NCBI GenBank assembly: GCA_028279365.1
Contig: JANQNX010000011.1
Span: 16,118 to 80,117, forward strand
Source of the DNA: Gammaproteobacteria bacterium
GTDB lineage: Bacteria > Pseudomonadota > Gammaproteobacteria > Eutrophobiales > Eutrophobiaceae
Direction of reading: 5' to 3'
Length of the DNA: 64,000 nt
Part shown: positions 36,334 through 58,388 of the stretch, piece after piece
How positions within the stretch are numbered: position 1 is the stretch's first letter
Layout: every line of letters begins with the position of its first letter
Translations under genes and position numbers: made by a program
The notes under the pieces: model-generated
The model's database searches: none
What the model was told of the DNA's origin: nothing
Seen by the model: the letters and a program-made list of their open reading frames with translations, nothing else

Positions 36334-37491
36334 ATGGAACAAGATCAACTCAAGGAAATTGCCGAGCTACTTGATCCTGTCGATCTAATAATCTGCCTGA
36401 TCAATTTTAATAGGCAAACTAAGCAATATTTGTTGCAAACAACATTTAACAAGAAACACGATACGTTTAATACATATAACCAAGCATTTAGCGTGGCAGA
36501 TGAATTAAAAATCGATGCACTTATTGTGATAGAACCCTTCGACTCAATACTGAGTGATACCAGTTTTTCATTTATTCATTCTTTAACGACTTTCTATAAA
36601 GACACATATTTGGTTACGGTTGTTAACCATCCAGAGCCTGGTCAGCAACAGCTGTTAAAAAACACTATCCAACTTACTATTGAAAATTATCTACTCAATA
36701 AAAAACTCGAAGCACAAGAAAAAAAATATCAGGCTTATCTCCAGGAGGTTAAAACAATAAAAGAAAAGTTGTTACCTTCTGCAGAACACACGATTGAAGG
36801 TCTGGACTATGCGACGTATTACAAACCGAATATTGGTGGTGGTGGGGATTACTTTGACATTATGGACCTGCGTGATGCCAGGCGCCGGGCAGGTTATGAA
36901 GATACACCATTAGTCTGGGGCGTCGGTTTAGTGGATGTGTCCGGGCATGGTCCTGGAGCAGCAGTAGAGGTGGCAATGGTTGATGCCATTTTACGTACCT
37001 TTCAAGGACAAATTGGCACAGTGGCATCAGATGTCATGGCATATCTGAACCAACATTTCTTTACCAGACAATCACGCGGTGGATATTGCACGGCATTTTT
37101 ATGTAACTACGATGCCGAAGCCGATCTTTTTTCCTACTCGTCGGCTGGGCATTTGCCGGTATTAATCAAGCATCATGAAGGCCATGTGACTGTGTTGGAA
37201 AGTGAAACGGGTATTCCGATCGGGATAGATCGTGATGCGACGTGGGTGACCGAGACCACCCAGCTTGAACAAGGCGATACGATAATTTTATATACCGATG
37301 GAATTACCGAAGCGGAATCAGTGTCTGGCGAACAGTTTGGATTTGAACGGTTAAAACAGGTATTGGAAGACAGTCCTGCAGGATCGGCAGAATTATTAAT
37401 GTCGCATTTTATGCATGATTATCATCAGCATATTGATAATTCAACCAAGCAGGATGACCAAACCTTAATTATGGTAACGATTTCAAGCTGA
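36334..37491 (+). CDS. PP2C/SpoIIE-family serine phosphatase with an uncharacterised ~150-aa N-terminal domain
   Basis: GGGGDYFDI, DVSGHGPGAA, LYTDGITEAE and DDQTLIMV match the SpoIIE/RsbU catalytic core. Confidence 0.8.
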   Translation: MEQDQLKEIAELLDPVDLIICLINFNRQTKQYLLQTTFNKKHDTFNTYNQAFSVADELKIDALIVIEPFDSILSDTSFSFIHSLTTFYKDTYLVTVVNHPEPGQQQLLKNTIQLTIENYLLNKKLEAQEKKYQAYLQEVKTIKEKLLPSAEHTIEGLDYATYYKPNIGGGGDYFDIMDLRDARRRAGYEDTPLVWGVGLVDVSGHGPGAAVEVAMVDAILRTFQGQIGTVASDVMAYLNQHFFTRQSRGGYCTAFLCNYDAEADLFSYSSAGHLPVLIKHHEGHVTVLESETGIPIGIDRDATWVTETTQLEQGDTIILYTDGITEAESVSGEQFGFERLKQVLEDSPAGSAELLMSHFMHDYHQHIDNSTKQDDQTLIMVTISS

Positions 37492-37510: not shown

Positions 37511-38380
37511 TTAAGCAAACGCCCAACTGGCAAAGGGTTCGATCTCATCGCGGTTTAATACGATCAATTGAAACTGTTTTGGGTCTTGCGAATGGTCAAT
37601 GGACGTATCCACTGATAACTGACGCAACAAATAGCCAATCAATGCACGTCTTAATTTCACTTCAATGACATCATCGTTGGCATTGTAATCGATCAATAAA
37701 CTGGTTTGTTGTTTGTCATCCAGTTTTGGATGAGGTGATAGTTTCAAGGTGATCATTTCCGTCCAGTCCTCGTCATAACTCGCGCGTGATTCGGCATCGA
37801 TGCTCAGACAATTCGCTTCCTCAAAACGTGATAAGACAAAATCACGAAAATCAAACGTATCCTGATTGTAAGCACGGACATGCCAGCGAAATCCGGTATT
37901 CACTAATGAGTGTGGCTCAATCACACGCGATGAGTTTTGCTTATCGCTGAGGGAGCGGTAATTGACCTTGAGTTGTTTATGTCCATAAATTGCCCGTGTG
38001 ATTTGGCACAGCACTTCTTTAGTCGGCAAACGATTGGGTAATTGCAGATTCGTTGTCGGTATTTCAAAGACGGATTCATCAGGGTTCGGGCTACCTGAGA
38101 CGGTCTGATTTGCTTCCAGCAAGGGCAATACGGTGGCTGGGGACAAATCTGTAAATGCAGGACTAAATGCGTTAGTCGGCACGAAACCAAACACACTGTG
38201 CTTGTATTGCAGGTTTTCTGGCGCGATATCACTATAGAGTTTCAGGTCTTTCGTCGCCGCGGCATCCGAAATCGCAAAGGCCTTGGCGATATCGCTGCGC
38301 GTCACCACACCACAAAAGTAAGCCATCACTTCGATGAATTGCATTCGCTGGCGTGTTGCCCATTTCATTTCGTTCAACAT
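37511..38380 (-). CDS. WYL-domain transcriptional regulator (wHTH - WYL - C-terminal extension)
   Basis: N-terminal HTH-like RQRMQFIEVMAYFCGVVTRSDIAKAFAISDAAATKDLKLY. Central segment LKVNYRSL...RVIEPHSLVNTGFRWHVRAYN is typical of WYL domains. Divergent from recA. Confidence 0.7.
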   Translation of the reverse strand: MLNEMKWATRQRMQFIEVMAYFCGVVTRSDIAKAFAISDAAATKDLKLYSDIAPENLQYKHSVFGFVPTNAFSPAFTDLSPATVLPLLEANQTVSGSPNPDESVFEIPTTNLQLPNRLPTKEVLCQITRAIYGHKQLKVNYRSLSDKQNSSRVIEPHSLVNTGFRWHVRAYNQDTFDFRDFVLSRFEEANCLSIDAESRASYDEDWTEMITLKLSPHPKLDDKQQTSLLIDYNANDDVIEVKLRRALIGYLLRQLSVDTSIDHSQDPKQFQLIVLNRDEIEPFASWAFA

Positions 38381-38456
38381 GGGAAAATTATACAGGCTAG
38401 AGCAAACTCTAATAAAAACTATTAGATAGTAAAAAATACTAAGGTGATAAAAAATA

Positions 38457-38485
38457 TTGACATCTAAAAAAGTATTGCCTATAGT
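38457..38485 (+). promoter_or_regulatory. Near-consensus sigma70 promoter for recA (TTGACA-17 nt-TATAGT)
   Basis: TTGACA at 38457-38462, a 17-nt spacer, and TATAGT at 38480-38485, 78 nt upstream of the recA ATG. Confidence 0.5.
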
Positions 38486-38562
38486 TTCACCATCAGCGCA
38501 TTAAAACTGGCGCAGAAAAAGAGATTCAATGTTTACATTCAAGGGTTAAATGGAGAAGCAAG

Positions 38563-39642: not shown

Positions 39643-40083
39643 ATGAGTATCGAACGCCAGGAAGTCTTACAAAAGGCTTGTGACTTCCTGGCGCGGCGCG
39701 AACATAGCCGTAAAGAACTGGCGCATAAACTGAAACGCGCTTGTGATGATGAAAGCCTGATAGAAGAATTATTGGATAAGCTGGCCGATGAAGGCTTACA
39801 AAGTGACGAACGCTTTGCCGAAAGTTTTATTCATCATCGTTACAATAAAGGTCAGGGTCCGATGAAGATTCAGCAGGAATTGCAGCAGCGCGGAGTCTCA
39901 TCGGAACTTTTCGAAGGGTTCTTGTATTCTGAAAAATATGACTGGTATGAGATGGCAGAGCAGACCCGGTTAAAAAAATACGGTGAAGCCATTCCCAAGG
40001 ATTACCAAACTAAGGCAAAACAGTCTCGATTCCTATATAGTCGCGGTTTTAATGGTGAGATAATAAACGAACTGTTTAAATAG
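39643..40083 (+). CDS. recX: RecA regulator RecX
   Basis: 146-aa helical-repeat protein immediately downstream of recA. Confidence 0.9.
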
Positions 40084-43994: not shown

Positions 43995-44109
43995 ATTCAG
44001 GAGAACTTGAATCGTCTACAGGATGAGAACTATTGACGGGGAAGTAGTCGTACTAAGGCTATAGCAAAATATTAATTATTAAGATTATGGAAGCATCAGG
44101 AGATAAATA

Positions 44110-44301
44110 ATGCTGATATTAACAAGACGAGTTGGTGAATCACTCATGATCGGTGATGAAGTCAATGTAACCGTCCTCGGTATACGTGGTAACCAGGTGA
44201 GAATTGGTGTCAATGCACCTAAAGATGTCGCCGTTCACAGAGAGGAAATTTACGAAAGGATTCAGAAAGAACAATCTGGTGAAGGAGAATCATCAGAATA
44301 A
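44110..44301 (+). CDS. csrA: Carbon storage regulator (RNA-binding global regulator)
   Basis: [52 protein letters not shown] is near-identical to canonical CsrA/RsmA. Confidence 0.96.
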
Positions 44302-44385
44302 GATAACGCTACACTTTTTCGGCCTTTACGCTGATTATCAGCGGAGGTATGCTTATGCACTTAAATTAGCAATTCTATATCGACT

Positions 44386-44413
44386 AAAAACACGGCATTA
44401 TTGCCGTGTTTTT
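44386..44413 (+). terminator. Rho-independent terminator after csrA
   Basis: Arms AAAAACACGGCA / TGCCGTGTTTTT with a 4-nt loop and a trailing T-run. Confidence 0.7.
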
Positions 44414-44432
44414 AGTTTAAAATTATAAAAAC

Positions 44433-44524
44433 GGAGAGGTGGCCGAGCGGCTGAAGGCGCTCCCCTGCTAAGGGAGTATACGGTTTATCCCGTATCGAGG
44501 GTTCGAATCCCTCTCTCTCCGCCA
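44433..44524 (+). tRNA. tRNA-Ser (anticodon GCT), class II with long variable arm, CCA encoded
   Basis: Folded by hand: acceptor GGAGAGG/TCTCTCC, anticodon arm CTCCC-CTGCTAA-GGGAG, long variable arm, T arm GAGGG-TTCGAAT-CCCTC, discriminator G, then CCA. Confidence 0.95.
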
Positions 44525-44533
44525 ATAAATAAC

Positions 44534-44557
44534 AAACCCCGAAACGCGGGGTTTTTA
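44534..44557 (+). terminator. Rho-independent terminator after tRNA-Ser
   Basis: AAACCCCG...CGGGGTTTTT hairpin followed by a T-run. Confidence 0.7.
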
Positions 44558-44576
44558 TTTATTTGGAAGCAGAGGC

Positions 44577-44602
44577 TTGATGAGAACCCTTTGGTTCGAC
44601 AA
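44577..44602 (+). repeat. Direct repeat copy 1 (TTGATGAGAACCCTTTGGTTCGACAA)
   Basis: Matches 44754-44779 (TTGATGAGAGCACCTTGGTTCGACAA) apart from a few substitutions in the centre. Confidence 0.75.
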
Positions 44603-44677
44603 TCTTCCGTAGGAAGATTGGACAGACGAACGGAGAGAGTCTGCCCCGAAGGGGTGAGTAAATGCCACAAGCATTTA

Positions 44678-44702
44678 CGAATCAATCCCTCTCTCTCCGC
44701 CA
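44678..44702 (+). repeat. Copy of the tRNA-Ser 3-prime end (CGAATCAATCCCTCTCTCTCCGCCA)
   Basis: Identical to tRNA-Ser 44504-44524 except for a 4-nt insertion (AATC). Ends in GCCA. Confidence 0.85.
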
Positions 44703-44711
44703 TAACAAAAT

Positions 44712-44733
44712 AACCGGCTTTTGCCGGTTTTTT
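44712..44733 (+). terminator. Rho-independent terminator directly after the tRNA-end copy
   Basis: AACCGGC-TTTT-GCCGGTT followed by a T-run. Confidence 0.65.
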
Positions 44734-44753
44734 ATTGTGTGGAGTTTGAGAAT

Positions 44754-44779
44754 TTGATGAGAGCACCTTGGTTCGACAA
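44754..44779 (+). repeat. Direct repeat copy 2 (TTGATGAGAGCACCTTGGTTCGACAA)
   Basis: See 44577-44602. The two copies start 177 nt apart. Confidence 0.75.
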
Positions 44780-44893
44780 ATCGGCAGAACGCCTACATGG
44801 ATGTAGGTGATAGAGCGAAGCAGGAGCCAGAGCCGAACAGCCGATTTGCACATTGCCTTAGCAATGCCTAAAAGGCAAACTGCAAGAATATAG

Positions 44894-44910
44894 CGAATGA
44901 GTCCCTCTCT
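44894..44910 (+). repeat. Second, more degenerate copy of the tRNA-Ser T-loop/acceptor end (CGAATGAGTCCCTCTCT)
   Basis: Shares CGAAT..TCCCTCTCT with 44504-44520 but has lost the CCGCCA end. Confidence 0.5.
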
Positions 44911-44953
44911 GTTGATATCCCAAAATGTAACTAAACTCCTTTAGGGTTTTGTG

Positions 44954-45811
44954 CTAAGGATTACAAAATTGACATCGGCCTGGGTCGGCTTTTTTCATAC
45001 CATGTTTGGGTGGTTTTGATTCTTTATATCCGCATTTTACACAGCCGTATATTTCGAATTTTATTTCGTTCGTTTTTGCGCCGCATAATTCACATTCAAG
45101 CCCTGTCTCAATAGAGATTTGACCCCATCCAGGCGCATTACACGATGGGCAGGTTGTACTTAATCTTTTAGCCATCGTTACAGCTAACTCAGAAATGATT
45201 TTCATACGCGAGGGATTCACATGCGCTCGCATATCCGTCTCGATCCATGCACTGCTATCATCGGAAAGACTGCATGCATGATGAAATGCATGTTCTAAAT
45301 CATCCTGGTTCTGAAGTCCCTTGACTATGTGTTGATTATCTCTTGGGGCATTCGGTCTTATGATCAAAGCATGTGAGGGAAACTGCGCCTTTTCGGCAAA
45401 TTCATTTAGCGACGCTAATGAATCAATTGTCTGCATCTGGTAATTCGTATTGGTTGATGTTTGTGAGAGATGAAGCTGGAGATCGCGTTCTCTATCAATG
45501 AAGTACAGGACTTCTACATCTCCGGGTAAAAACGGCATTTGAGGATGCGGGCCAAAGCTGCCCTCGCTGGCTATGCCGAACTGGCTATCCGCCTTATCCA
45601 TTCCCCATTCGCATTTTCGCTTGACGCAGCTAAGTACATCACCCGCGCGCTCAATCTCCCCGGTAAACGTACCAAGCTGATCGGTATCAAGCAGGTTAGT
45701 GATAAGCCTAGCTCCCAACACGGATGAAAATGCAGGTTCAATAGCCTTGTCTTTATCATGCTTGGAGGTCAGTACTATATCTTTACCCGAATAGGGAGAA
45801 TCGATAGCCAT
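44954..45811 (-). CDS. Hypothetical protein with four C-terminal CxxC motifs (double zinc ribbon)
   Basis: 285 aa with CPSC, CELC, CVKC and CQFC in the last 70 residues. The N-terminal ~200 aa has no motif I recognise. Lies between tRNA-Ser and tRNA-Arg. Confidence 0.6.
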   Translation of the reverse strand: MAIDSPYSGKDIVLTSKHDKDKAIEPAFSSVLGARLITNLLDTDQLGTFTGEIERAGDVLSCVKRKCEWGMDKADSQFGIASEGSFGPHPQMPFLPGDVEVLYFIDRERDLQLHLSQTSTNTNYQMQTIDSLASLNEFAEKAQFPSHALIIRPNAPRDNQHIVKGLQNQDDLEHAFHHACSLSDDSSAWIETDMRAHVNPSRMKIISELAVTMAKRLSTTCPSCNAPGWGQISIETGLECELCGAKTNEIKFEIYGCVKCGYKESKPPKHGMKKADPGRCQFCNP

Positions 45812-45964
45812 GTCTAATCCGAGTTTGATTAACTACAATGCAGTTGATTTTATAAATCAATAACTTATAAGTAAATTGAATTAATTATGTTTATAATAAT
45901 AGTGAAATAGCTGAGTGATTTGACTAAATGGCTCAGTCCTATAATATTCCCGGCTCAAAACAAC

Positions 45965-46041
45965 GCGCCCGTAGCTCAGCTGGATAGAGTACCTGGCTAC
46001 GAACTAGGGGGTCGGAGGTTCGAATCCTTCCGGGCGCGCCA
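45965..46041 (+). tRNA. tRNA-Arg (anticodon ACG), CCA encoded
   Basis: Acceptor GCGCCCG/CGGGCGC, D arm AGCTCAGCTGGATAGAGT, anticodon loop CTACGAA, T arm GGAGG-TTCGAAT-CCTTC. Confidence 0.95.
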
Positions 46042-46067
46042 TTTATAAGGCTTTCAAATCATTTTAA

Positions 46068-47498
46068 TTATCTTAAAAAGCCAAATCGTAAGGCTCTGAA
46101 CATTAGGTCACGATTCTTTAAGATGAAGCTATTCTTTGGTAACCATGATTTAGATTTCAGTACGGTTTTGGCTTTTGAGAAGGTTAAGAAACCCTCATGA
46201 CCGTGATAATGTCCCATACCAGAATTACCGACACCTCCAAACGGGGCATCATCTGCCGCAACATGCATGGCTGTATCATTAATCGATACTCCACCACTAT
46301 GTGTATTTTTCAAGATATTATCAATCAGCGAGTCATTGTTAGACATGATATATAAAGCCAATGGTCGTGGTCGTTCATTGATATAGTTAATTACTTTATC
46401 AATGTTTCTATAGGTGACAACAGGCAAGATAGAGCCAAATATTTCCTCATGCATGATCTTCATATCTTCACTCACATTGGTAATGATATGTGGAAAGATC
46501 AATCTACCATCAGTTTCTTTATATTCTTTTACAGAATGAATTTTCGCATTCTTAGCTTTGGCATCTTCCAGAAATTCTTTTAGCCTTTGAAATTGTCTAT
46601 CTGAAACAATATGAGTTTGTGTATTTTTATTATCACCTGATAAATAAGTATCTGTATATCGTTTGATAAATGTATCAACAAATTTTTTTTCTCTAGTTTC
46701 AGGTACAAACACATAATCAGGGGCAACACAAATTTGTCCTGAGTTGAGTGACTTTCCAACCATCACTGCATCAACAGCAGCATCCATATTAATATCTTCG
46801 TCAATAATAGTTGGAGATTTACCACCCATCTCTAGTGTAATAGGCGTGAGATTGTCAGCAGCCGACTTTGCTACCAATTTACCAACAGTCGTGGAACCAG
46901 TGAATATTAAGTGATCAAATGGCAGTGAAGAAAACTCAGCACCTACATTGGCTTCTCCTTCAACAATGATTATGTGTTCAGAAATATCCTGAACAACTTT
47001 GCGTAATGCTTTATTGGCATTAGGCGTAAATTCACTCATTTTAATCATTACGCGATTTCCAGCCGCCAGAGCTTGTATAGCAGGGCCCAGTGCTAAAAAG
47101 AATGGAAAATTCCATGGTGTTATCACACCAACTACACCTAAAGGTTGGTAATGAACTGTGACGGTCGAAGGAGCGAGAAATATTCCAGCATGACGTTTGG
47201 ATGGCTTCATCCATTTTTTTAGATTTTTAAGGGAATAATTGATCGCCATGACACTTGGTAATACATCCGCAATTAATGTGTCAAACTCACTACGATATCC
47301 ATAATCTTGCTTTAACGCATCATAGATAGCTTGTTCATTTTCTATTAATGAAGCTTTTAGTTTGGTTAGTACTTCCTTTCGTTCATTATAGTTAGGATAA
47401 AGCGCATTGTTATAAGACGCTTTCATCATTTCAAAATCATTTTTGAGTGATGATGTTTCCGGTGGGCTATCAAATTCTCCTTTTACTATATTATCCAT
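46068..47498 (-). CDS. NAD(P)-dependent aldehyde dehydrogenase (class 3 / coniferyl-aldehyde DH-like)
   Basis: Catalytic Glu block LEMGGKSP and Cys block NSGQICVAPDY. About 476 aa. Confidence 0.9.
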   Translation of the reverse strand: MDNIVKGEFDSPPETSSLKNDFEMMKASYNNALYPNYNERKEVLTKLKASLIENEQAIYDALKQDYGYRSEFDTLIADVLPSVMAINYSLKNLKKWMKPSKRHAGIFLAPSTVTVHYQPLGVVGVITPWNFPFFLALGPAIQALAAGNRVMIKMSEFTPNANKALRKVVQDISEHIIIVEGEANVGAEFSSLPFDHLIFTGSTTVGKLVAKSAADNLTPITLEMGGKSPTIIDEDINMDAAVDAVMVGKSLNSGQICVAPDYVFVPETREKKFVDTFIKRYTDTYLSGDNKNTQTHIVSDRQFQRLKEFLEDAKAKNAKIHSVKEYKETDGRLIFPHIITNVSEDMKIMHEEIFGSILPVVTYRNIDKVINYINERPRPLALYIMSNNDSLIDNILKNTHSGGVSINDTAMHVAADDAPFGGVGNSGMGHYHGHEGFLTFSKAKTVLKSKSWLPKNSFILKNRDLMFRALRFGFLR

Positions 47499-47537
47499 GG
47501 TTATTCTCCTAATAAGTTTTGTTTAAAATTAAAAAAT

Positions 47538-48098
47538 TTATTTGTTCTCTTCATCAACTACACTTTCGATAATTAAGGACATGTCTTTAAGAAATTGACT
47601 TCTGGATGTTTCTTCCAGTAGCAGACCTTTTCCTGCTGATATCAATGCGAAAGCCATTCCTAATGCTTTATTGTTTGATGCCAAATTATGACGTTCTAGA
47701 AATTCTGCTAATCTAGTTCTATATCGTAATGGCCAGTCTTCTTGGGAAGCATGCGTTGCTTTCAATGCATCATTAAAAACCTCTGCTCCATGTGGGTTGT
47801 TAACAATTTCTACCGCTTGACCTATGAAAGTATCGAATACATTTATAAGAGTTTTTAAGGGTGGTGTTTCATCATTACTTAAATCAGTAAAAATTGATGA
47901 ATACATTCCAGATAGATAAGTATGGATGCTCCATTCATAACACTTATCCTTAGAGCCAAATTTTTTATATATAGATTGTCTGGAAACACCCATGGCACGA
48001 GCTATGTCTTCCATCGACGTTTTTTGAAATCCGTATTGAGCAAAAGTAGCAAGAATATCTTTCGCCTTCGCATTGTCGTTTTTTACTGTATCTAACAT
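47538..48098 (-). CDS. TetR/AcrR family transcriptional regulator
   Basis: N-terminal HTH TSMEDIARAMGVSRQSIYKKFGSK. Lies upstream of the ALDH on the same strand. Confidence 0.85.
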   Translation of the reverse strand: MLDTVKNDNAKAKDILATFAQYGFQKTSMEDIARAMGVSRQSIYKKFGSKDKCYEWSIHTYLSGMYSSIFTDLSNDETPPLKTLINVFDTFIGQAVEIVNNPHGAEVFNDALKATHASQEDWPLRYRTRLAEFLERHNLASNNKALGMAFALISAGKGLLLEETSRSQFLKDMSLIIESVVDEENK

Positions 48099-48450
48099 TG
48101 ATTTGCTCCTAAATGTAAATCAAAAGTTAACAAAACACATAGATTTTGTAATAAGAATAATTACGAATATTACAATAAAAATACAATATGTCAATATTTG
48201 AGTTTACAAATATTGCTCATAATGTAAATATAAAGAGAAATACATAATAAAATTAGTAAGTTACGAAGCCAGAATTGTGTTTTTAGTGACTGATAAATTT
48301 AGTTGTAGAACAACCTTTTTGTTCCATCGCTAATATCATCTACAAGGTATTTCAGGTATTTATACACCTGAAATTTAGTTATTTATGGGGCATTTATTAT
48401 TTGTAAACAGATGTATGTTATGGTTTTCGAGTATTAGACTAACTATCTAT

Positions 48451-48487
48451 GAACTAGGGGGCGAAAGTTCGAACCCTTCCGCACCCA
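48451..48487 (+). repeat. Degenerate direct repeat of the tRNA-Arg 3-prime half (att-like remnant)
   Basis: GAACTAGGGGGCGAAAGTTCGAACCCTTCCGCACCCA compared with the tRNA at 46001-46041, GAACTAGGGGGTCGGAGGTTCGAATCCTTCCGGGCGCGCCA. Confidence 0.75.
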
Positions 48488-48518
48488 TAGGGCATAAAGG
48501 CACGCCATTTTTTATACT

Positions 48519-49829
48519 TTATCTCTCAATGTGTAATTTTTGGGTATAGGTGAATTCCAGCCCACCTTCTGCACGGTTCTTTAAACTGATTTTTCCATTG
48601 AGTTGTTCAGCAATCTCACTGCAAATCGCTAAGCCAAGACCACTGCCAGGTTCAGTATTACCTTCGATTCGATAAAATGGCGTAAATACTTTATCAATAT
48701 ATTTTTCTTCGATACCAGGACCGCTGTCGATTACTTTGAATACAGCGTATCCATCATTATTAGATAAACTCACATCAATTTTGCCGCCATTCGGGGTGTA
48801 ATAAATAGCATTAGAAATGGCGTTTTCAAATAATTGGCTTAATCCACCATTAAAATCATCTAGTTCAGTCTCTATAGATTCAGTAACACCAAGGTCAATC
48901 GATTTTTTTTCGGCCAAAGGGTAAAGCGATGTCACTGTCTCTTTCAGTACTTCATTAGCACGAACCTGACTAAAGGAATCAGCCCCGACATTACGTAAAC
49001 GCGCGAACTTTAGCAGTTGATTAACGAGTGAGTTTAATCGAATTAGACTTTGATGTAATAATTTGAATCGTTCATCGCGTTCTGATTCAGTTTGGGCAGC
49101 GTATACATTCTCGGATTGTATGGTTAATGCCGCGACAGGAGTACGAAGTTCATGTGATGCATCGGCTATGAAACGGCGCTGATGTTTGATTGTTTCTCCC
49201 GCACGCGCCAGTAATCGGTTAATAGCTTCAATAAATGGTATGATTTCAGTTGGTATTTTTTCAACTGGTAATGGGTTCATGTCATCGACTGATAAATAAT
49301 CTACGTTATGTGCTAATTGTTTGATAGGTTTCATTCGGCTCCAGATAATCCACGTTATAGCGGCAAGTAGTATTGCTGCCATGATAATGATTGGTAACAT
49401 TGCACTTATTGCATTCGCCCATGCAATCTCATCTCTGAGCTCTGTTTGTTGCGCAATGACGAAACGTTGATTCGATGGTTTAGTTATCAGATAGATTCGC
49501 CAGGATGTATTGCCATATTTAATTGTTGCAAATCCGTCAGCTTGTTCTGGATCAATGTCTAATGATTTATTCTTTAAATCATTTAATGGCTGCACAATGA
49601 TATTGGAATCATTTTGGCGTGAACTCCAATTATTTGAATTACCGGCGGTGTCAATTGAAATGGTTCGGGCAATTTGAACCAAAATCTCATCTTGCATTTC
49701 ACGCGCTTCATCAAATGCCAATAAACCGGCGATTAAGCCGGCCAAAATCGCAACAGTGATTGTCGTAATGAAGATCCAGCGTGTCAGTTCTCTGAGTAAG
49801 GATCTCGGTTCTATTTTTTTACCATCCAC
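48519..49829 (-). CDS. Sensor histidine kinase (QseC/PhoQ-like, two TM helices)
   Basis: H-box ASHELRTP, N-box NAISNAIYYT, G-boxes DSGPGI and GSGLGLAI. Confidence 0.88.
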   Translation of the reverse strand: MDGKKIEPRSLLRELTRWIFITTITVAILAGLIAGLLAFDEAREMQDEILVQIARTISIDTAGNSNNWSSRQNDSNIIVQPLNDLKNKSLDIDPEQADGFATIKYGNTSWRIYLITKPSNQRFVIAQQTELRDEIAWANAISAMLPIIIMAAILLAAITWIIWSRMKPIKQLAHNVDYLSVDDMNPLPVEKIPTEIIPFIEAINRLLARAGETIKHQRRFIADASHELRTPVAALTIQSENVYAAQTESERDERFKLLHQSLIRLNSLVNQLLKFARLRNVGADSFSQVRANEVLKETVTSLYPLAEKKSIDLGVTESIETELDDFNGGLSQLFENAISNAIYYTPNGGKIDVSLSNNDGYAVFKVIDSGPGIEEKYIDKVFTPFYRIEGNTEPGSGLGLAICSEIAEQLNGKISLKNRAEGGLEFTYTQKLHIER

Positions 49830-50467
49830 CCTAAGCCTCGAACATTTTTAATTGCATCTTTGCCAAGTTTTTTTCGTAATTCATGAATGATGACTTCCAC
49901 TGCATTACTGGCAATTTCTTCATTCCAACCATAGATTTGTTCTTCCAGCTCTGATTTAGAAAGTATTCGACCTGGCTTAATTAATAATAATCTTAATAAA
50001 GCAAACTCACGGGCTGATAGGTTGAATGTATCCTCGCCTTTAGTTAACTCACCTGTGGCATTATCTAACGTTAGCTCCCCGTTGGATAGAATTGAGCTGG
50101 CTGCACCTTGGTTACGACGTGTGACAGCCCTTGTTCTTGCAAGCAGTTCATCGATAGAGAATGGTTTAACTAAAAAATCATCTGCACCTAGGTCAAGACC
50201 TTTAATTTTATCTTCAATTGCATCTTGCGCAGTGATTATTATCACTGGAGTTTTGGAATTTTCCTCTCGAAGTGTAGATAGAATCTCGAAACCATTCTTT
50301 TTAGGGAGACCTAAGTCAAGCAAGATTAAACTATAGTCTTCTATCTGCGCCGATGCTAAACCAGACAGACCGTCTTTAGTCCAATCAATGGAATAAGATG
50401 CATCTTTCAGTGCTTGTTGTATAGCCGTGCCGATTAAAGGGTCATCTTCTATTAGTAATACTCTCAT
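49811..50467 (-). CDS. OmpR-family response regulator
   Basis: Receiver MRVLLIEDD...LILLDLGLP followed by a winged-helix C-terminus. Overlaps the kinase gene by 19 nt. Confidence 0.9.
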   Translation of the reverse strand: MRVLLIEDDPLIGTAIQQALKDASYSIDWTKDGLSGLASAQIEDYSLILLDLGLPKKNGFEILSTLREENSKTPVIIITAQDAIEDKIKGLDLGADDFLVKPFSIDELLARTRAVTRRNQGAASSILSNGELTLDNATGELTKGEDTFNLSAREFALLRLLLIKPGRILSKSELEEQIYGWNEEIASNAVEVIIHELRKKLGKDAIKNVRGLGWMVKK

Positions 50468-50480
50468 ATATTCTTGTGCA

Positions 50481-50503
50481 GCCCACCTTATATAAAGGTG
50501 GGC
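50481..50503. other. 9-bp perfect hairpin between the PepSY and response regulator genes
   Basis: GCCCACCTT-ATATA-AAGGTGGGC. There is no clear T-run on the transcribed (minus) strand. Confidence 0.35.
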
Positions 50504-50532
50504 TTTGAGTATATTTATGTCAATCGAATAAA

Positions 50533-50874
50533 CTAATCATCATCACGTTCATTTTCAAGAATGGCTCCGCTATTGGCGTCAATCTCAAATTCATAGACCT
50601 GATTTTGATTATTGACGATTTCTATCTCCCATACTACCAAGCCATCATCTTTTTCGATTTCGGCCTCAATAACTTTTCCTGGTGTATCAGCTAATGCAAT
50701 CTTCATGGCTTCATCGATTCCCAATGTCGCATTTTGTACCAGACTGACAGCATCTGAATCACAGTCATCAGAATCTCTTTTTCCATGATCTTTATTTGCT
50801 AATACGGTAGCCGAGGCTCCTAGTATCGTAAGAACAGTGATGCCAGTTGCAAGAGTTTTGCTTGATATTTTCAT
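50533..50874 (-). CDS. Small secreted PepSY-domain protein
   Basis: Signal peptide present. PGKVIEAEIEKDDGLVVWEIEI...YEFEIDANSG is PepSY-like. Commonly found upstream of OmpR/HK pairs. Confidence 0.7.
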   Translation of the reverse strand: MKISSKTLATGITVLTILGASATVLANKDHGKRDSDDCDSDAVSLVQNATLGIDEAMKIALADTPGKVIEAEIEKDDGLVVWEIEIVNNQNQVYEFEIDANSGAILENERDDD

Positions 50875-51158
50875 GGTTTATCTCCAGTTTCAGTAAGTTT
50901 TTTTAACGTAATCATTTACGCTATGTGGGAGTAGCATAGTCATCAATACTTAGCTGAAAATTAGCAAATTGTCGATTTACTGGAATTATTACTTTCCACC
51001 TTCTATTCCATAATTTCTGAAAAACTATTGGTAACTAAAATAGCATCAGGGATTTACACCTAAAATCATCAGGATTATTTCACTGTTTTCATTTAACTCA
51101 TATAAATTATTAATTATCTGATTTATATTCCGCATTTTAGATAGCACGTTAAAATTAA

Positions 51159-51689
51159 ATGTTAGTCAGTATTCATCAATCTGAAAATAAGGTGAAAAAA
51201 AACACTCGATATTTTAAAGGCTGGAACAGCAAAAGCAGCGTGGATTTCGAGCTAAAAACTAAAAAGGATATTCTTTTAGTCGTAGCTATTGGTCTTATTG
51301 TGTTTTTTTCTTGTATCTGGTTAGACATTTTGTCCTTTCAGGACGCTTGGTTTGAAATAGGTGAAGTTGTTATAGCAACATTTTTTTCTTTTATATGTCT
51401 GATCTGGTTTGGTTTTACACGATGCCAAGATGCTAACTATTTTTTGAAAAAGTGCCTAAAGACTCAAGTTGAGTATGATCAAAAGGAGCAAGCGAAAATA
51501 ATTGATGCTAGAGGCTTTAAACCAGACGGAATTAACCACGATCTTGGATTAATCGGCATGCGTGAGCGAATCAAGAATTTGGGCGGGCCTTTTGAGATAT
51601 CCAGTAAAGCTAATCGGGGTGTAGATCTTCCAATATTGGCACCCCTGAAAGATATGAAAGTTAATAATTATGAATGTTATGCCGATTAA
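51159..51689 (+). CDS. Degenerate HisKA_3/NarX-type sensor kinase remnant (2 TM helices plus only the last ~45 aa of the ATPase domain)
   Basis: C-terminus DGINHDLGLIGMRERIKNLGGPFEISSKANRGVDLPILAPL equals the G2 box and the end of HATPase_c. No H-box or N-box is present. Overlaps the following LuxR-type regulator by 20 nt. Confidence 0.5.
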   Translation: MLVSIHQSENKVKKNTRYFKGWNSKSSVDFELKTKKDILLVVAIGLIVFFSCIWLDILSFQDAWFEIGEVVIATFFSFICLIWFGFTRCQDANYFLKKCLKTQVEYDQKEQAKIIDARGFKPDGINHDLGLIGMRERIKNLGGPFEISSKANRGVDLPILAPLKDMKVNNYECYAD

Positions 51690-52341
51690 AGTTCTTATTG
51701 TAGATGATCATCAAATTCTTCTTGACGGATATAAAAGTCTGTTAGAGGCAGAAGGTTTCAATGTTTCAGGTTGTGCCGAAAATGTCGATGAAGGATTTTT
51801 ACTATATAAAAAACTAAAACCGGACATATCGATTGTTGATATATCAATGCCAGGAAAAAGTGGTCTAAGTTGTATTGAAAGCATTATTGCTTATGACAAT
51901 ATGGCGAAAATCATTGTCTGTACCATGTATGATGAAGTGCAGCTTGTTATCAAGGCTATGCATATGGGGGCGAAAGGCTTTATTACCAAAACGAGTTCAT
52001 TGTCAGTGATTGCTGATGCGATAAAAACTGTTTATTCAGGTGGCTGTTATCTTTCAGAAAAACATGCGCATGATATTGCGCTTCTTGATATAAAGGATAA
52101 GAAGGAAAAAGTTAAGGAGCATTCGCATTTTAAATTAGATGAGCTCTCAGAAAAAGAATTACATATTTTTAAAATGGTTGCGCACGGCCTTAATACCAAG
52201 GAAATTGCTGAAAAAATCTCTCTTTCATCCAAAACAGTGGCAAATTATCGATCAAAGATTTTAAGTAAGATTGGAGCAAAAAATTCACGTGAATTAACAG
52301 TTATTGCCATGAAAAACGGACTGATTAAATCCGATATATAA
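51670..52341 (+). CDS. NarL/LuxR-family response regulator
   Basis: Receiver VLIVDDHQ...DISIVDISMPG and the C-terminal LuxR HTH LSEKELHIFKMVAHGLNTKEIAEKISLSSKTVANYRSKI. Confidence 0.9.
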   Translation: MNVMPIKVLIVDDHQILLDGYKSLLEAEGFNVSGCAENVDEGFLLYKKLKPDISIVDISMPGKSGLSCIESIIAYDNMAKIIVCTMYDEVQLVIKAMHMGAKGFITKTSSLSVIADAIKTVYSGGCYLSEKHAHDIALLDIKDKKEKVKEHSHFKLDELSEKELHIFKMVAHGLNTKEIAEKISLSSKTVANYRSKILSKIGAKNSRELTVIAMKNGLIKSDI

Positions 52342-52356
52342 TAATTATTACACTAC

Positions 52357-52716
52357 TTGGGAATCAAATTAATGATGTTTTATAAAAAAACTATATTGTT
52401 TTTCCTCTGCCTTTTCTCTTCCAATAATTTCGCGATGAAAATGGAATCTGAATTAGCTGATTACATTTTATTAAAAGAGATCGTTGATGCATCATGTGCG
52501 AATAAAAACGGGAAGATGATTGTGGTTGAGTCAAAAGAAAAAAATCATAGCATTGAGGTTCAGCTAGAGAGATATTTTCAAAATGTCAGGCAACCTGGAC
52601 GTTCTGTTGTCGTGTTAGAACCAGGCGACAAATATAAAAAACTCGGATGTTCGCGTGTTCTTTATGATGAAGCGGAACAAAAATGGAGGATTGTAAAAAT
52701 AAAAATTATTGAATAA
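52357..52716 (+). CDS. Small secreted hypothetical protein
   Basis: Hydrophobic N-terminus TILFFLCLFSSNNFA. No recognisable family. AT-rich context. Confidence 0.4.
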   Translation: MGIKLMMFYKKTILFFLCLFSSNNFAMKMESELADYILLKEIVDASCANKNGKMIVVESKEKNHSIEVQLERYFQNVRQPGRSVVVLEPGDKYKKLGCSRVLYDEAEQKWRIVKIKIIE

Positions 52717-52725
52717 GTAAAAATT

Positions 52726-53139
52726 TTAGCACTTTCTCGGAAAACGACTAAGAATGTAGCGTATCATTGTTGCATCGTCGTTATTAGCAATAAGATAATC
52801 TCTTTGTATTTCATACGCCTCACGTTCCAGTTTTAATCTTTCATCGCAACTAATTTCGATGGCTTTTTTGTTAAATACGATGTTCTGTATATGGTGCACT
52901 GCTTCATGAATGTAATAAGCTTGATCAGAGACACTGTTATTTAAATCCATTCCTTTACTGATAAATACTGTTTCAGTAGTGTCATTATAATAGGCAACAG
53001 CACTACATTTTTTTCCTTGGCAGACTTTCTCGAAAATAACCGTTTGTTCTACAATTTCTATTTTCGGATAAGAGACATCATGCTCAATTCCCATCATGTT
53101 GAGCACAATTAAAAAAAGTTGTTCGGCAATAGATTCCAT
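52726..53139 (-). CDS. Hypothetical 137-aa protein with an HExxH motif (possible minimal zinc metallopeptidase)
   Basis: YYIHEAVHHIQN contains HEAVH. No signal peptide. Confidence 0.45.
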   Translation of the reverse strand: MESIAEQLFLIVLNMMGIEHDVSYPKIEIVEQTVIFEKVCQGKKCSAVAYYNDTTETVFISKGMDLNNSVSDQAYYIHEAVHHIQNIVFNKKAIEISCDERLKLEREAYEIQRDYLIANNDDATMIRYILSRFPRKC

Positions 53140-53337
53140 ATCGTTTTTATCATAGTTAGATTCTCCTATCTTAAATTAAAGTTGAAAGTAAAAACTATTT
53201 TCATTTTGTTTAGGATTATTTCATGTCAAAAAAAGTGAGTTTAATAACTATTTAAATAGTTATTAAAAATGTAGTTTGTCGTTTCAAGAATAAGCATTGT
53301 ATTTCTGGTTAATAAATTAACATTTAAAAGATGTAGT

Positions 53338-53853
53338 ATGCGTTATAGATATTTATATTCTTTTTTTTATGTCTTTCTGTTAGCAGCTTGTGAGGGTGAG
53401 TCATATGATGCCAGTTATAAACCTTACTTTGAAAATGAAGCCAAAGACCTCGGTAAAGCAGGTAATGAATTAGAAAGCGACTTCATTACGTTTGCTGATG
53501 AAATAAATGAAGTTGACTGGCTGATTTTAAAAACAACTGGTTATGAACCTGATGAATATGCAGAACGTGAAGACATTAGCAGACTCCTGGAATTGCTGGA
53601 TACAGTTTACAGCGAAGATAAACGGATGATTGCAAACAGAACGGTTCAGACTGCAAAGATGTTAGAAGAAAACCAGCTTCATTTTGACTTAAAAGCTTTT
53701 TTAGAGGGGTTTGCTGAAATACCGAGCGAGGGCAGCATGACTGTTTTTGGGAGTTATTGTCAGCATTACTTTAACTTAAGAAGTAATGATTTGTCTCATG
53801 CACAAGTCATTAATTACATGGTGTCTGGTCGACGTGAAATAAACCCAAATTAG
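53338..53853 (+). CDS. Hypothetical lipoprotein
   Basis: Lipobox LLAAC. The mature part is acidic and helical. Confidence 0.5.
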   Translation: MRYRYLYSFFYVFLLAACEGESYDASYKPYFENEAKDLGKAGNELESDFITFADEINEVDWLILKTTGYEPDEYAEREDISRLLELLDTVYSEDKRMIANRTVQTAKMLEENQLHFDLKAFLEGFAEIPSEGSMTVFGSYCQHYFNLRSNDLSHAQVINYMVSGRREINPN

Positions 53854-53863
53854 TAAGGAAGTC

Positions 53864-54184
53864 ATGTTAAATAAAACAAAACTATTAAAAACCATCACTT
53901 TTATCATTTCATTTATTTTTGTTTGCAGCATTTCCGCCAACGATACGTTAGGAAAATATACAGAGGCAGGATTTCTAAAAGAAATATTAGGCAAGTCTGA
54001 AGATGTTGTTATTGAGATCCTGGGTGAACCGATAAAGATAGTCACAAAAAATAATATGAAGTTTTTTTTGTATGAATCATTAGTGCAACAAGGTGACGCT
54101 GATAAGTATTTTAAATATACGCAATTAGCCATTGTTAACGGAATCGTGCAAAACATTGGTAATTCTAATAGAGCTGCTAAATAA
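53864..54184 (+). CDS. Small secreted hypothetical protein
   Basis: Signal peptide TFIISFIFVCSISA. 10-nt gap to the preceding lipoprotein gene. Confidence 0.45.
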   Translation: MLNKTKLLKTITFIISFIFVCSISANDTLGKYTEAGFLKEILGKSEDVVIEILGEPIKIVTKNNMKFFLYESLVQQGDADKYFKYTQLAIVNGIVQNIGNSNRAAK

Positions 54185-54402
54185 GTATTAATAAAGCAAA
54201 ACGTAATAGTTGAAAGCTTAAATCCGTTGCCTTAACCACTGATTCTTGTCAGTTGAACGCTTCATTATCAATTTCACTTTTATTTTAGGGAATAAATCCT
54301 ATGCATATTGTGAACTGTTTACAATCACAATGAGAAATGAATAGTTTAAGTGATTAATTGCAGCTCTATTAAATAACTTATTCCCTATGGAATACTGATT
54401 CG

Positions 54403-54442
54403 GTTGCAACAAGTTTTCATCAGTTGCATTGGCTTTTCATAA
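54403..54442 (+). promoter_or_regulatory. Tandem 20-bp direct repeat upstream of mxaF (GTTGCA-N5-TTTTCAT, twice)
   Basis: GTTGCAACAAGTTTTCATCA followed directly by GTTGCATTGGCTTTTCATAA (14/20 identical, in two conserved blocks). Ends 36 nt before the mxaF ATG. Confidence 0.4.
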
Positions 54443-54478
54443 ATAGAATATAAGAAGATGAGTAACAGGAGGAAAATC

Positions 54479-56356
54479 ATGACAAGTGCTGTAAGACATC
54501 GTAGCTCATTCTTTGTCTTCCTCGCTCCATTAGTACTATCGCTTTTCAGTCTGAATATTTCAGCGAATGATAAGTTAGTGAAGATGGCGGAGGATGATAG
54601 AAACTGGGTGATGCAGTGTAAGAACTATGACTGTAATCATTACAGTAAAATGACTCAGGTAAATAATGCAAATGTAAAACGTTTACGTCCAAGTTGGTCG
54701 TTTTCAACAGGTCTGCTGCATGGCCATGAAGGATCGCCGTTGGTGATTGATGGCATGATGTATATTCATAGTCCATTCCCTAATAACACTTATGCGATTA
54801 ATCTTAATGAACCTGGTGTAATTGTTTGGGAACACAAGCCAAAACAGGACCCGGCTGCAAGGGCGGTGGCCTGTTGTGACCTGGTGAATCGTGGTCTTGC
54901 TTATTGGCCTGGTGATGACAAATTGCCACCGATGATTGTTAAAAGTCAGCTTGATGGCAAAGTGGTTGTGCTAAATGCCAAAACGGGCGCAGTGCATTGG
55001 GAGGTTGAAAACGGTGATATCTCAGTAGGCCAGACAGAAACCGCTGCACCTTACGTTATCAAAAACATGGTAATCCAGGGTTCTTCCGGCGCTGAATTAG
55101 GTGTTCGTGGCTATGTGACCGCTTATGATATTCATAGTGGTGAAATGGTGTGGCGTTGGTATGCAACTGGACCTGATAAAGAAATTGGCTTGCATAAAAG
55201 CTTTAATAAGGAAAACCCACACTACGGCCAGAAAGGCTTAGGTCTTGCTACCTGGGAAGATGATGCCTGGAAGATTGGTGGTGGTACTAACTGGGGTTGG
55301 TATGCCTATGATCCGGATGTCGACATGTTCTACTACGGTTCTGGTAACCCTGCACCTTGGAACGAGACGATGCGCCCTGGTGATAATAAATGGACGATGA
55401 CGATCTGGGGTCGTGATGCTGATACCGGTTTAGCAAAATTTGGTTATCAAAAAACACCTCATGATGAATGGGATTACGCTGGCGTGAATGTCATGATGCT
55501 TTCCGAGCAGAAAGATAAAAAAGGCAAAATGCGCAAGCTGCTAACACATCCGGATCGTAACGGTATTATTTATACTCTGGATCGTGAAACGGGCGATTTG
55601 GTTTCGGCAGATAAACTGGATGAGACTGCTAACTGGGTAAAGAAAGTCGATCTAAAATCAGGTCTTCCAATTCGTGACCCTGAATACAATACACGTATGG
55701 ATCATCGCTCAAAAGAAGTCTGTCCTTCAGCGATGGGTTTTCATAATCAGGGTGTAGATTCCTATGATCCAAATAAGGAATTGTTCTACCTGGGTATCAA
55801 TCACCTGTGCATGGACTGGGAACCTTTCATGTTGCCTTATCGTGCTGGTCAATTCTTTGTTGGTGCCAATGTATGGAGCTATCCTGGACCTAAAGGTGAT
55901 CGCCAGAAAGGTATTGGTTCTGGTCAAGTGAAGGCCTATAACGCAATCAGCGGCAAATATAAGTGGGAAAAGATGGAAAAATTTGCTGTTTGGGGCGGCA
56001 CGATGGCAACCGCAGGTAATCTCGTCTTTTATGGGACATTGGATGGTTTTATAAAAGCACGTCATTCTGATACGGGAGAGTTGTTGTGGAAATTTAAACT
56101 CCCTTCAGGTGCGATTGGACACCCAATGACCTATATGCATAAGGGTAAACAGTATGTCGGCATCAATTACGGTGTAGGCGGCTGGCCCGCAGTCGGTCTG
56201 GTGTTTGATTTACATGACCCTTCTGCTGGTTTGGGTGCAGTCGGTGCCTTTAAGGAACTCGCCAAACATACTCAAATGGGCGGTGGCTTCATTGCGTTCT
56301 CTCTAAACGGTGAAGGTCCTTACGATGATATTAGTCTTGGCGAGTACGAGATGTAA
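54479..56356 (+). CDS. mxaF: PQQ-dependent methanol dehydrogenase large subunit, Ca-type (MxaF)
   Basis: Signal peptide and vicinal disulfide AVACCDL. Catalytic-site block DEWDYAGVN has Ala, not Asp, two residues after the catalytic Asp (MxaF, not XoxF). Followed by mxaJGI. AGGAGG at 54467-54472 favours ATG 54479 over the track start at 54458. Confidence 0.95.
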
Positions 56357-56370
56357 TTTCATTTGTATGC

Positions 56371-56412
56371 TTAGTTCAGGGTGGTGGTCACACAATTGCC
56401 ACCCTGAACTAA
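56371..56412 (+). other. Strong 14-bp hairpin in the mxaF-mxaJ spacer
   Basis: TTAGTTCAGGGTGG (56371-56384) pairs with CCACCCTGAACTAA (56399-56412). No T-run follows. Confidence 0.5.
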
Positions 56413-56453
56413 ATTAATTCGAATAACGATAAATATCCATTGTAGTAATTATC

Positions 56454-57311: not shown

Positions 57312-57329
57312 AACCAATTATTAAAATTA

Positions 57330-57920: not shown

Positions 57921-58048
57921 GCAAAAGTTCTAGTTTGGTTTATTAATAAATCAAACTTTAAAAGTATGCAGGACTGCATTCGGTTTTGACAGGGTATGTC
58001 ATTAAACAAGAAATAAATAACATTAAAAGTAATATCAGGAGGTAAGAG

Positions 58049-58324
58049 ATGAAGATAAAGTCAAAAATGTTAATGATCGCATTAGTTGCTGCTTTAAGTA
58101 CAGGTTCAATAGCTGTTTCAGCATACGACGGAACCAAATGTAAAGCTAAAGGTAATTGCTGGGAAGCAAAGCCAGGTTATCCAAAAAAAGTTAAAGGTAG
58201 TAAATACGACCCTAAACACAGTAAAGCTGAACTTGAAAAGCAGACCGCATCTATGATTGCTCAGGAAAGCAGAAATAAAGAACGCGCTGAAAATTTTAAG
58301 AAAACAGGTAAATGGGTTTATTAA
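58049..58324 (+). CDS. mxaI: Methanol dehydrogenase small (beta) subunit
   Basis: 91-aa Lys-rich secreted protein. The mature N-terminus YDGTKCKAKGNCWEAKPGYP is typical of MxaI. Confidence 0.9.
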   Translation: MKIKSKMLMIALVAALSTGSIAVSAYDGTKCKAKGNCWEAKPGYPKKVKGSKYDPKHSKAELEKQTASMIAQESRNKERAENFKKTGKWVY

Positions 58325-58388
58325 AATTGCTAACAGACTTTTGTCATATTTGACCTCCTCCTCGAAGGGCAGGATTTGGCAAAGTATT

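Follow-up and report, generated by a model that had tools for sequence, protein, structure and literature searches.

A BrxR/CapW-type WYL protein conserved beside recA is a candidate single-stranded DNA-responsive repressor of recA-recX

INTRODUCTION

How is recA controlled where a search for a LexA box upstream of it comes up empty? The question is raised by a 64,000-nucleotide stretch of DNA from a Gammaproteobacteria bacterium (GenBank assembly GCA_028279365.1, contig JANQNX010000011.1, positions 16,118 to 80,117), which we call the window and whose own numbering is used throughout. Here recA-recX lies back to back with a gene for a protein with winged helix-turn-helix (wHTH) and WYL domains. 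A sequence-only reading of this DNA had suggested, with PafBC and DriD of other bacteria as models, that recA may be controlled by a WYL activator in place of LexA or alongside it, and that such control would be unusual for a gammaproteobacterium. Our analysis strongly backs the link between the regulator and recA but not the activating mode. The claim of rarity is also weakened, because the WYL activator DdaA has replaced LexA in Moraxellaceae and activates recA there (PMC12392091, PMC13010146), so that a WYL regulator of recA in the Pseudomonadota is no longer unprecedented.

The functional link is strongly backed because the pairing of the two genes is invariant, an operator-like block lies over the promoter, and a LexA-type box was found at recA in none of 69 relatives. 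By analogy with better known proteins, the regulator is most likely a LexA-like switch for recA. Judging from sequence and from the behavior of its relatives, we put the probability that it is an autoregulated repressor of recA-recX, released from DNA by single-stranded DNA (ssDNA), at roughly 0.6. The features at the center of this proposal are as follows.

37511 to 38380, minus strand: WYL regulator gene, encoding a 289-aa BrxR/CapW-type wHTH-WYL-WCX protein
38381 to 38562: divergent intergenic region, 182 bp between the WYL and recA start codons
38563 to 39624, plus strand: recA, the proposed target (Pfam RecA, E = 1.1e-144; RecA_C also matches)
39643 to 40083, plus strand: recX, 18 nt 3' of recA (RecX_HTH1, RecX_HTH2, and RecX_HTH3 all match)

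The divergent arrangement, the length of the protein, and the 182-bp gap are as first described, and the coordinates were confirmed. There is no terminator-like site on the plus strand between recA and recX, and recX is probably cotranscribed with recA.

RESULTS

Family and fold of the regulator

The WYL domain, at first recognized from the sequence, was confirmed with a hidden Markov model search (PF13280, E = 2.1e-14, residues 122 to 189). In precomputed Pfam annotations, the regulator and all of its relatives carry WHD_BrxR (PF26109), PF13280, and BrxR_CTD (PF26107), and the 289-aa protein has the domain set that defines BrxR/CapW proteins, namely a BrxR winged helix together with WYL and C-terminal WCX domains within about 290 aa. 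When the protein was compared with the Protein Data Bank (PDB) using phmmer, the matches to BrxR and CapW ranged from E = 3.5e-40 to 1e-33. These included Acinetobacter BrxR (7t8k, E = 3.5e-40, residues 2 to 288 covered) and, over the full length, Escherichia fergusonii BrxR (7qfz, E = 1.6e-37) and CapW (9c5g, 7tb6, and 7tb5, E of about 1e-35). The match to PafBC was confined to the WYL domain (E = 4e-5). An AlphaFold2 model built from an alignment of 101 sequences reached a predicted local distance difference test score (pLDDT) of 94.7; an earlier model from 14 sequences (pLDDT 60) was discarded as poor. In Foldseek searches, the TM-scores of the model were 0.76 to 0.82 against BrxR and CapW and 0.27 to 0.40 against PafBC and DriD.

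Because the full-length PDB matches, the fold, and the domain set agree, we assign the regulator, on its sequence and predicted structure, to the BrxR/CapW type, a clade of repressors, and not to the PafBC/DriD type of activator. Membership in the PafB/PafC or DriD clades was not found, as the sequence match is to the WYL domain only and the TM-scores do not exceed 0.40. The regulator is set apart from DdaA by the published description of the DdaA clade as distinct from the CapW/BrxR clade (PMC12392091). The analogy to activators drawn in the sequence-only reading is therefore not supported, either by this placement or by the promoter, whose constant consensus -35 box does not suggest dependence on an activator.

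The residues of the ssDNA-binding pocket of CapW are preserved. Residues 164 to 171 read FRWHVRAY, with the RWHVR motif at R165 to R169, and S143, R165, R169, and R185 align with S144, R164, R168, and R184 of Rl CapW, which contact ssDNA and are required for induction (PMC11662680). None of the four varies in the alignment of the regulator family. In every recA-linked member with 58% identity or more, the recognition helix (S38 to K47, SDAAATKDLK) is constant as well. Mean column identity in an alignment of 14 family members was 79%, which indicates strong purifying selection on the regulator.

Pairing of the regulator gene with recA

To place the gene pair in context, 86 related loci were fetched in which the regulator protein is 58 to 91% identical to ours. 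The regulator gene is divergent from recA in 74 of them; for the remaining 12, the upstream DNA is no longer than 375 bp, which is too little to judge. Taking all sources together, the pairing is kept wherever the upstream DNA suffices, at about 80 loci with 40 to 91% identity. Among 1.84 billion cluster representatives that were searched, the recA-linked group is reduced to a few sequences, at 59, 50, 47, 46, 40, and 40% identity, all of which adjoin recA; a search of genome contigs with the single protein as query gave three close loci. The nearest checkable homologue that does not adjoin recA (38% identity) lies in an island with an integrase and a type III restriction-modification system, the usual context of BrxR. 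When 101 family members were placed in a neighbor-joining tree, the 14 sequences that are recA-linked and at least 45% identical grouped as one discrete clade in all 200 bootstraps.

The other side of the regulator gene is not conserved. Its far-side neighbor differs among loci and may be pncC or a gene for a cupin, an ABC-F protein, a TonB receptor, or a histidine kinase. The order in the window is pncC, a SpoIIE/PP2C gene, the WYL gene, recA, and recX, followed by alaS. The earlier statement that two extra genes separate pncC from recA is thus right for the window, but only the WYL gene is conserved next to recA.

The pairing spans lineages of Beta- and Gammaproteobacteria. The family includes proteins of the cultured Thiobacillus denitrificans ATCC 25259 and Thiobacillus sedimenti as well as metagenome-assembled genomes of Thiobacillaceae, and in T. 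denitrificans ATCC 25259 (CP000116.1) the regulator gene, at 2276489 to 2277379, is again divergent from recA-recX, with recA beginning near 2277560. Closed metagenome-assembled contigs with the module are ERZ26962017:ctg11100 (2.85 Mb), ERZ25067879:ctg73874 (4.4 Mb), ERZ25072283:ctg173165 (2.5 Mb), and ERZ25069296:ctg24217 (1.77 Mb). The module is present in a large bacterial group made up of abundant, mostly uncultured marine and sediment bacteria together with cultured T. denitrificans. The neighbors at the approximately 80 recA-linked loci are recA, recX, alaS, lysC, pncC, and other housekeeping genes; defense, integrase, and mobile-element genes were found at none of them. The recA-linked locus is chromosomal, vertically conserved, and nonmobile, and we treat the association with phage defense as a habit of the BrxR/CapW family rather than as part of its structural definition.

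The shared promoter region

The intergenic region has a GC content of 31%, compared with 41% in the window, and contains the following elements.

38457 to 38485, plus strand: recA sigma-70 promoter, TTGACA (38457 to 38462), 17-nt spacer, TATAGT (38480 to 38485)
38387 to 38392, minus strand: putative -10 box of the WYL gene, TATAAT, 6 nt upstream of the ATG
38410 to 38476: proposed operator array of four A-rich 14-bp units, spaced 17, 18, and 18 bp apart
38410 to 38423: unit O0, TAATAAAAACTATT
38427 to 38440: unit O1, TAGTAAAAAATACT, centered near -58.5
38445 to 38458: unit O2, TGATAAAAAATATT, centered near -39.5
38463 to 38476: unit O3, TCTAAAAAAGTATT, in the promoter spacer, with the conserved AAA.GTAT
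38442 to 38463: 22-bp imperfect palindrome, AGGTGATAAAAAATATTGACAT, centered near -39.5 and covering the recA -35 box

The recA promoter recognized at the outset holds up: it agrees with the consensus at 11 of 12 positions and is the sole match that good between 37300 and 40200. Relatives were compared by aligning 69 distinct intergenic regions on TTGACA, and the -35 box is constant across them. On the other side of the gap, ATTATA or GTATA(C/G) is kept in nearly all of these regions at the relative position of the WYL -10 box, which leads us to regard 38387 to 38392 as the putative -10 element of the WYL gene. As only 6 nt separate this box from the ATG, the mRNA of the regulator may have no leader in this organism; in relatives the spacing varies.

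A block of about 78 bp is conserved around the recA promoter, with 1.22 bits per column compared with 0.23 in the flanks, and the -35/-10 spacer alone reaches 1.02 bits per column, although a promoter does not require a conserved spacer. Its consensus is c.taaTAaAAtaTAttAtATaGTAaAAAaTAc.aAGGT.aTAAAAAgTATTGACAT..a.AAA.GTAT.gcCTA.agT. The units, whose own consensus is about T.rTAAAAArTAyt, cover the -35 box and the promoter spacer, and within the alignment autocorrelation is highest at a lag of 18 bp (0.54, compared with about 0.35 at other lags). A general repeat search reported nothing in the gap, so the 18-bp periodicity comes from that separate autocorrelation. The best-conserved part of the block is the 22-bp imperfect palindrome, and a symmetry scan found A.GT...T.AC.T paired in 86 to 95% of the 69 sequences. 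AGGT (at -50) and the T following TTGACA are conserved although both are dispensable for RNA polymerase. The palindromic element is found in T. denitrificans too, where the block has 30% GC within DNA of 66% GC. Compared with the kind of operator expected for this family, a palindrome or pseudopalindrome of about 19 to 27 bp over the core promoter, the block overlaps the -35 box and the spacer and contains a 22-bp imperfect palindrome, yet it consists mostly of direct units.

Two overlapping perfect palindromes just upstream of the -35 box had first drawn attention to this DNA, and both are exact. TAGTA-AAAAA-TACTA (38427 to 38441) lies inside the conserved block, whereas ACTAT-TAG-ATAGT (38418 to 38430) is specific to the window, is missing in relatives, and was rejected as a conserved element. 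Three palindromes with 5-bp arms are present in the gap compared with 0.41 expected in shuffled sequences (P of about 0.02), and conservation argues against chance far more strongly than this shuffle test does. The palindromes had also been taken to occupy an activator-type position; this is not supported, as conservation extends beyond the DNA upstream of the -35 box to the box itself and the spacer.

A position weight matrix (PWM) of the conserved block (TAGTAAAAAATAC..AGGTRRTAAAAARTATTGACAT and the 14-bp unit) matched only the site upstream of recA in the 64-kb window and the 86 loci (627 kb), with secondary matches 18 bp to either side. The SDAAATKDLK helix is constant wherever the block is conserved, and the P0146 lineage has both another helix (SPPAASNTIR) and another upstream sequence.

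Some relatives depart from the usual layout of the gap. In one (L044), a 527-bp gap is swollen by about five tandem 29-nt GC-rich repeats beside the WYL start, and in another (L011), a 396-bp gap has an insertion within the recA leader; the conserved operator/promoter block is intact in both. In the P0145 lineage (L091, 40% identity), a Y-family polymerase gene (dinB-like, with IMS domains; positions 1307 to 2698 of that locus) lies directly downstream of the WYL gene and has two copies of TATTGAAAA(T/A) upstream. This is a hint that a translesion polymerase, too, is under the control of the regulator in that lineage.

LexA-type and other known motifs

The absence of a gammaproteobacterial SOS box in 38381 to 38562 was confirmed and extended. 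CTGT does not occur in this interval, ACAG occurs once (at 38392), and CTGT-N8-ACAG is not found there with up to two mismatches. Among the relatives, it has only two poor one-mismatch matches, both in GC-rich DNA. Motif scans for LexA sites of the gammaproteobacterial, alphaproteobacterial, Gram-positive, and Xanthomonad types gave no LexA box at recA in the 69 upstream regions, and the DdaA and DriD motifs had zero matches on either strand of the same regions. The only perfect CTGT-N8-ACAG in the window (CTGTCTCTCAACACAG, 63675 to 63690) was rejected as a LexA site, being inside an open reading frame and having a GC-rich spacer; by chance alone, 64 kb should contain approximately one match of this kind. 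A tblastn search for lexA over the 627 kb of loci, with Escherichia coli LexA as the query, found nothing, which says little. No SOS boxes were seen by eye upstream of dinB (L091) or ssb (L087). Nitrosomonadaceae and Chromatiaceae have been described as being without LexA homologues (Cambray et al., PMC3108266), which is a lead rather than a test.

One lineage presents a different picture. In L089, TTGT-N8-ACAG, which is one mismatch from the gammaproteobacterial SOS box and has an AT-rich spacer, lies over the recA -10 box. In the regulators of L089 and L090 (P0143 lineage, 46% identity), RWHVR has decayed to SHWYAR, and no WYL Pfam match was recorded. LexA control may have been regained or retained in this lineage, where the ssDNA sensor has degenerated.

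DISCUSSION

Proposed regulation

We propose that recA is a housekeeping target to which a homodimeric BrxR/CapW-type regulator was recruited. As long as the cell is undamaged, the dimer would sit on the array of A-rich units between the back-to-back promoters. The units over the recA -35 box and spacer (38442 to 38476) would block RNA polymerase, while the upstream units would reach the regulator's own promoter, and the protein would repress itself as well as recA-recX. Upon DNA damage, ssDNA would enter the WYL pocket (S143, R165, R169, and R185) and spread the two wHTH domains, as in CapW, the regulator would come off the DNA, and the near-consensus recA promoter would fire. The logic would be that of LexA, in which a damage signal frees a repressor, with no need for RecA-stimulated self-cleavage. 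What we infer here rather than show is that the protein binds the block, in which direction it regulates, what its ligand is, and how far its regulon extends.

Repression relieved by ssDNA is favored because the ssDNA pocket is conserved, the promoter has a consensus -35 box and good spacing, and the units lie on the -35 box and spacer. Regulators of the BrxR/CapW clade bind DNA when free of ligand and are released from it by ssDNA. An activator with this allostery would lower recA after damage, which would be biologically senseless, so a repressor is the more plausible form. There are also models for the arrangement: CapW and its target operon are transcribed divergently, both being repressed by CapW from a site overlapping the core promoter, and the BrxR site overlaps a -35 box.

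Several observations weigh against this proposal. The block consists of four direct units 18 bp apart with partial dyad symmetry, whereas BrxR/CapW operators are 10-N5-10 or 19- to 25-bp palindromes, and our symmetry scan gave partial dyads only and no clean BrxR-like 10-N5-10 palindrome. The element just upstream of the -35 box, TAAAAAGTA, could be an ordinary UP element. Covariation of recognition helix and motif comes from one lineage only (P0146). PWM scans for a wider regulon found no second block site in the 64-kb window or the 86 loci, leaving regulation beyond recA-recX and the regulator's own gene unsupported. In addition, O1 and O2 are centered where class I and class II activators would bind, and the WYL regulators shown so far to control recA (PafBC, DriD, and DdaA) are all activators (PMC12392091, PMC13010146).

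The last two points, together with the conserved ssDNA pocket, are also what speaks for a damage-activated activator, in which the ssDNA-bound regulator, upstream of or over the -35 box, would recruit RNA polymerase in the manner of PafBC, DriD, and DdaA. We consider this unlikely. By sequence and fold the regulator falls in the repressor clade, its likeness to activators is limited to the WYL domain, and, as ssDNA abolishes DNA binding in the BrxR/CapW clade, the opposite allostery would be needed. Moreover, the promoter should be strong unaided, given its constant -35 box of consensus sequence and a good -10 box at a 17-nt distance, and the block runs into the spacer, where a bound protein would obstruct RNA polymerase. 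PafBC-type promoters, for comparison, have no -35 box. It could be, instead, that the regulator does not control recA at all and acts on itself or on distant genes, the block being promoter architecture (UP element, -35 and -10 boxes) or the site of another factor, such as an unrecognized LexA variant or a nucleoid protein. The A-tracts beside the -35 box do resemble a proximal UP element, the dyad symmetry is weak, and the TAGTA...TACTA arms are loosely like a Xanthomonad LexA box. Yet the pairing is constant over 40 to 100% protein identity and across beta- and gammaproteobacterial lineages while the other flank changes, which would be difficult to account for if the two were not functionally linked. 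Conservation reaches the spacer and AGGT at -50, neither of which is read by RNA polymerase, an 18-bp spacing is out of helical phase and makes the A-tracts unlikely as curved DNA, no known LexA motif matches, and regulators of the BrxR/CapW family act on the adjacent divergent promoter. We therefore hold this explanation to be improbable.

Two further readings concern the reach of the regulator. It could be a phage-defense regulator, leftover or active, that lies near recA by chance or raises recA in an antiphage response. The family is known only from defense islands (PMC9122601), and PADLOC WYL models match the protein, but these are generic WYL-domain models. The approximately 80 loci free of defense, integrase, and mobile-element genes, the strong purifying selection (mean column identity of 79% in 14 members), and the discrete recA-linked clade leave this explanation very little room. 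At the other extreme, a damage regulon independent of both LexA and RecA may have the regulator as its master repressor, in Thiobacillaceae and in a large set of uncultured marine and sediment Gammaproteobacteria, lineages that would have lost LexA. This broader version of the repressor proposal is tentative, and we rather doubt it. If it were true, it would add another case in which a WYL protein independently took over the SOS response, and the first case from the repressor clade, and would give the widespread phage-defense regulators BrxR and CapW and a core DNA-repair regulator a recent common origin.

Meaning of the pairing

In full-text literature searches, we found nothing that links a BrxR/CapW-type protein to recA. 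BrxR/CapW repressors have so far been understood only as switches of phage-defense islands, and WYL control of recA has so far come from activators only. What we propose as new, from sequence and by analogy, is that the ssDNA-sensing repressor clade has a member whose target is a housekeeping DNA-repair gene. If true, recA would be the first housekeeping target of this clade, the circuit would be LexA-like but would sense ssDNA directly and without RecA-stimulated self-cleavage, and an evolutionary link would be drawn between DNA-repair and antiviral regulation. The regulator may also account for recA induction in lineages reported to be without LexA. As the module is present in cultured T. 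denitrificans ATCC 25259, the hypothesis is directly testable.

Other features of the locus

Two further features accompany the pair in the window.

38493 to 38516, plus strand: recA leader hairpin, weak (RNAfold, -5.9 kcal/mol), a few nucleotides after the predicted +1
36334 to 37491, plus strand: SpoIIE/PP2C phosphatase gene, 385 aa, N-terminal approximately 190 aa without a family match

A leader hairpin of -8 kcal/mol or stronger is predicted in 58% of 67 relatives, with differing sequences but the same shape, as in GGCTATTC-GGGG-GAATAGCC and, in T. denitrificans, GCGGA..TCCGC. It was seen just past the recA -10 box in L009, L004, L016, L027, L096, and others; it is weak in the window and missing in the L034-L039/L052 subclade. 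No Rfam family matched it, and it may be a 5' mRNA-stabilizing element.

The SpoIIE/PP2C gene follows pncC in the window and in L001, L004, L009, and L010 and is missing from most relatives, for which reason it was not counted in the module. Its addition is lineage specific, and it belongs with pncC rather than with the WYL-recA pair. Elsewhere, positions 1 to 35200 and 44000 to 64000 hold ordinary chromosomal housekeeping genes. Among them are a gatA-like amidase gene, mreBCD, the gene for PBP2, rodA, mltB, rlpA, dacA, lipB, lipA, an ATP-grasp/Alpha-E cluster, xseA divergent from guaB, guaA, tadA, and two-component systems, and no defense or mobile-element genes were found among the genes checked in these two intervals. 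Rfam identified two tRNAs and no rRNA.

Comparison with known systems

BrxR (PDB 7T8K, 7T8L, and 7QFZ) is the best match in sequence and structure (E = 3.5e-40, TM-score of about 0.8). In Acinetobacter, the site of BrxR lies over a -35 box and its central 5 bp are A:T-rich, as in O1 and O2, and the higher-order binding of several dimers reported for BrxR would be a further likeness. In contrast, the base-contacting SRQQ of BrxR is SDAA here, K64 and Y66 are F64 and F66, and the 10-N5-10 inverted repeat and the defense context are missing.

CapW (PDB 7TB6, 7TB5, and 9C5G) shares the wHTH-linker-WYL-WCX architecture and fold (E of about 1e-35, TM-score of 0.76 to 0.81), the RWHVR motif with the same four ssDNA-contact residues, and a gene that is divergent from its target with a common promoter region. 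By analogy, the expected logic would also be the same, an autoregulated repressor freed by ssDNA after DNA damage. The differences lie in the target and its DNA. CapW controls an immune operon, whereas the proposed target here is the housekeeping recA-recX in a chromosomal, vertically conserved, nonmobile locus. The recognition helix is SDAAATKDLK rather than S.PQ.S.D.., and the candidate operator has four units over the -35 box and spacer rather than a single 19- to 24-bp palindrome over the -10 box.

The WYL regulators known to act in DNA damage are more distant. DdaA of the Moraxellaceae, including Acinetobacter, resembles our regulator as proposed in being a WYL sensor of the ssDNA type that controls recA without a LexA box in the Pseudomonadota, and it introduced the idea that SOS control can pass to a WYL regulator. 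It is, however, an activator of about 335 aa from a DriD-like clade separate from CapW/BrxR (PMC12392091), with a genome-wide regulon and a motif, CGWCA-N5-TGWCG, that is missing here. DriD of Caulobacter and PafBC of Actinobacteria are likewise WYL sensors of ssDNA in LexA-independent damage responses, and PafBC controls recA, but both are activators whose similarity to the regulator is confined to the WYL domain (PafBC E = 4e-5; TM-score of at most 0.40). The DriD motif, CGAC-N7-GTCG, and the PafBC RecA-NDp promoter motif, which has no -35 box, both differ from the recA block.

Finally, the regulator bears no relation to LexA and lacks an S24 peptidase domain, it would need no RecA-stimulated self-cleavage, and no LexA box of known type is present at recA here. 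In its proposed function it would nonetheless do what LexA does, repressing recA from an operator over the promoter, repressing itself, and giving way to a signal derived from ssDNA.

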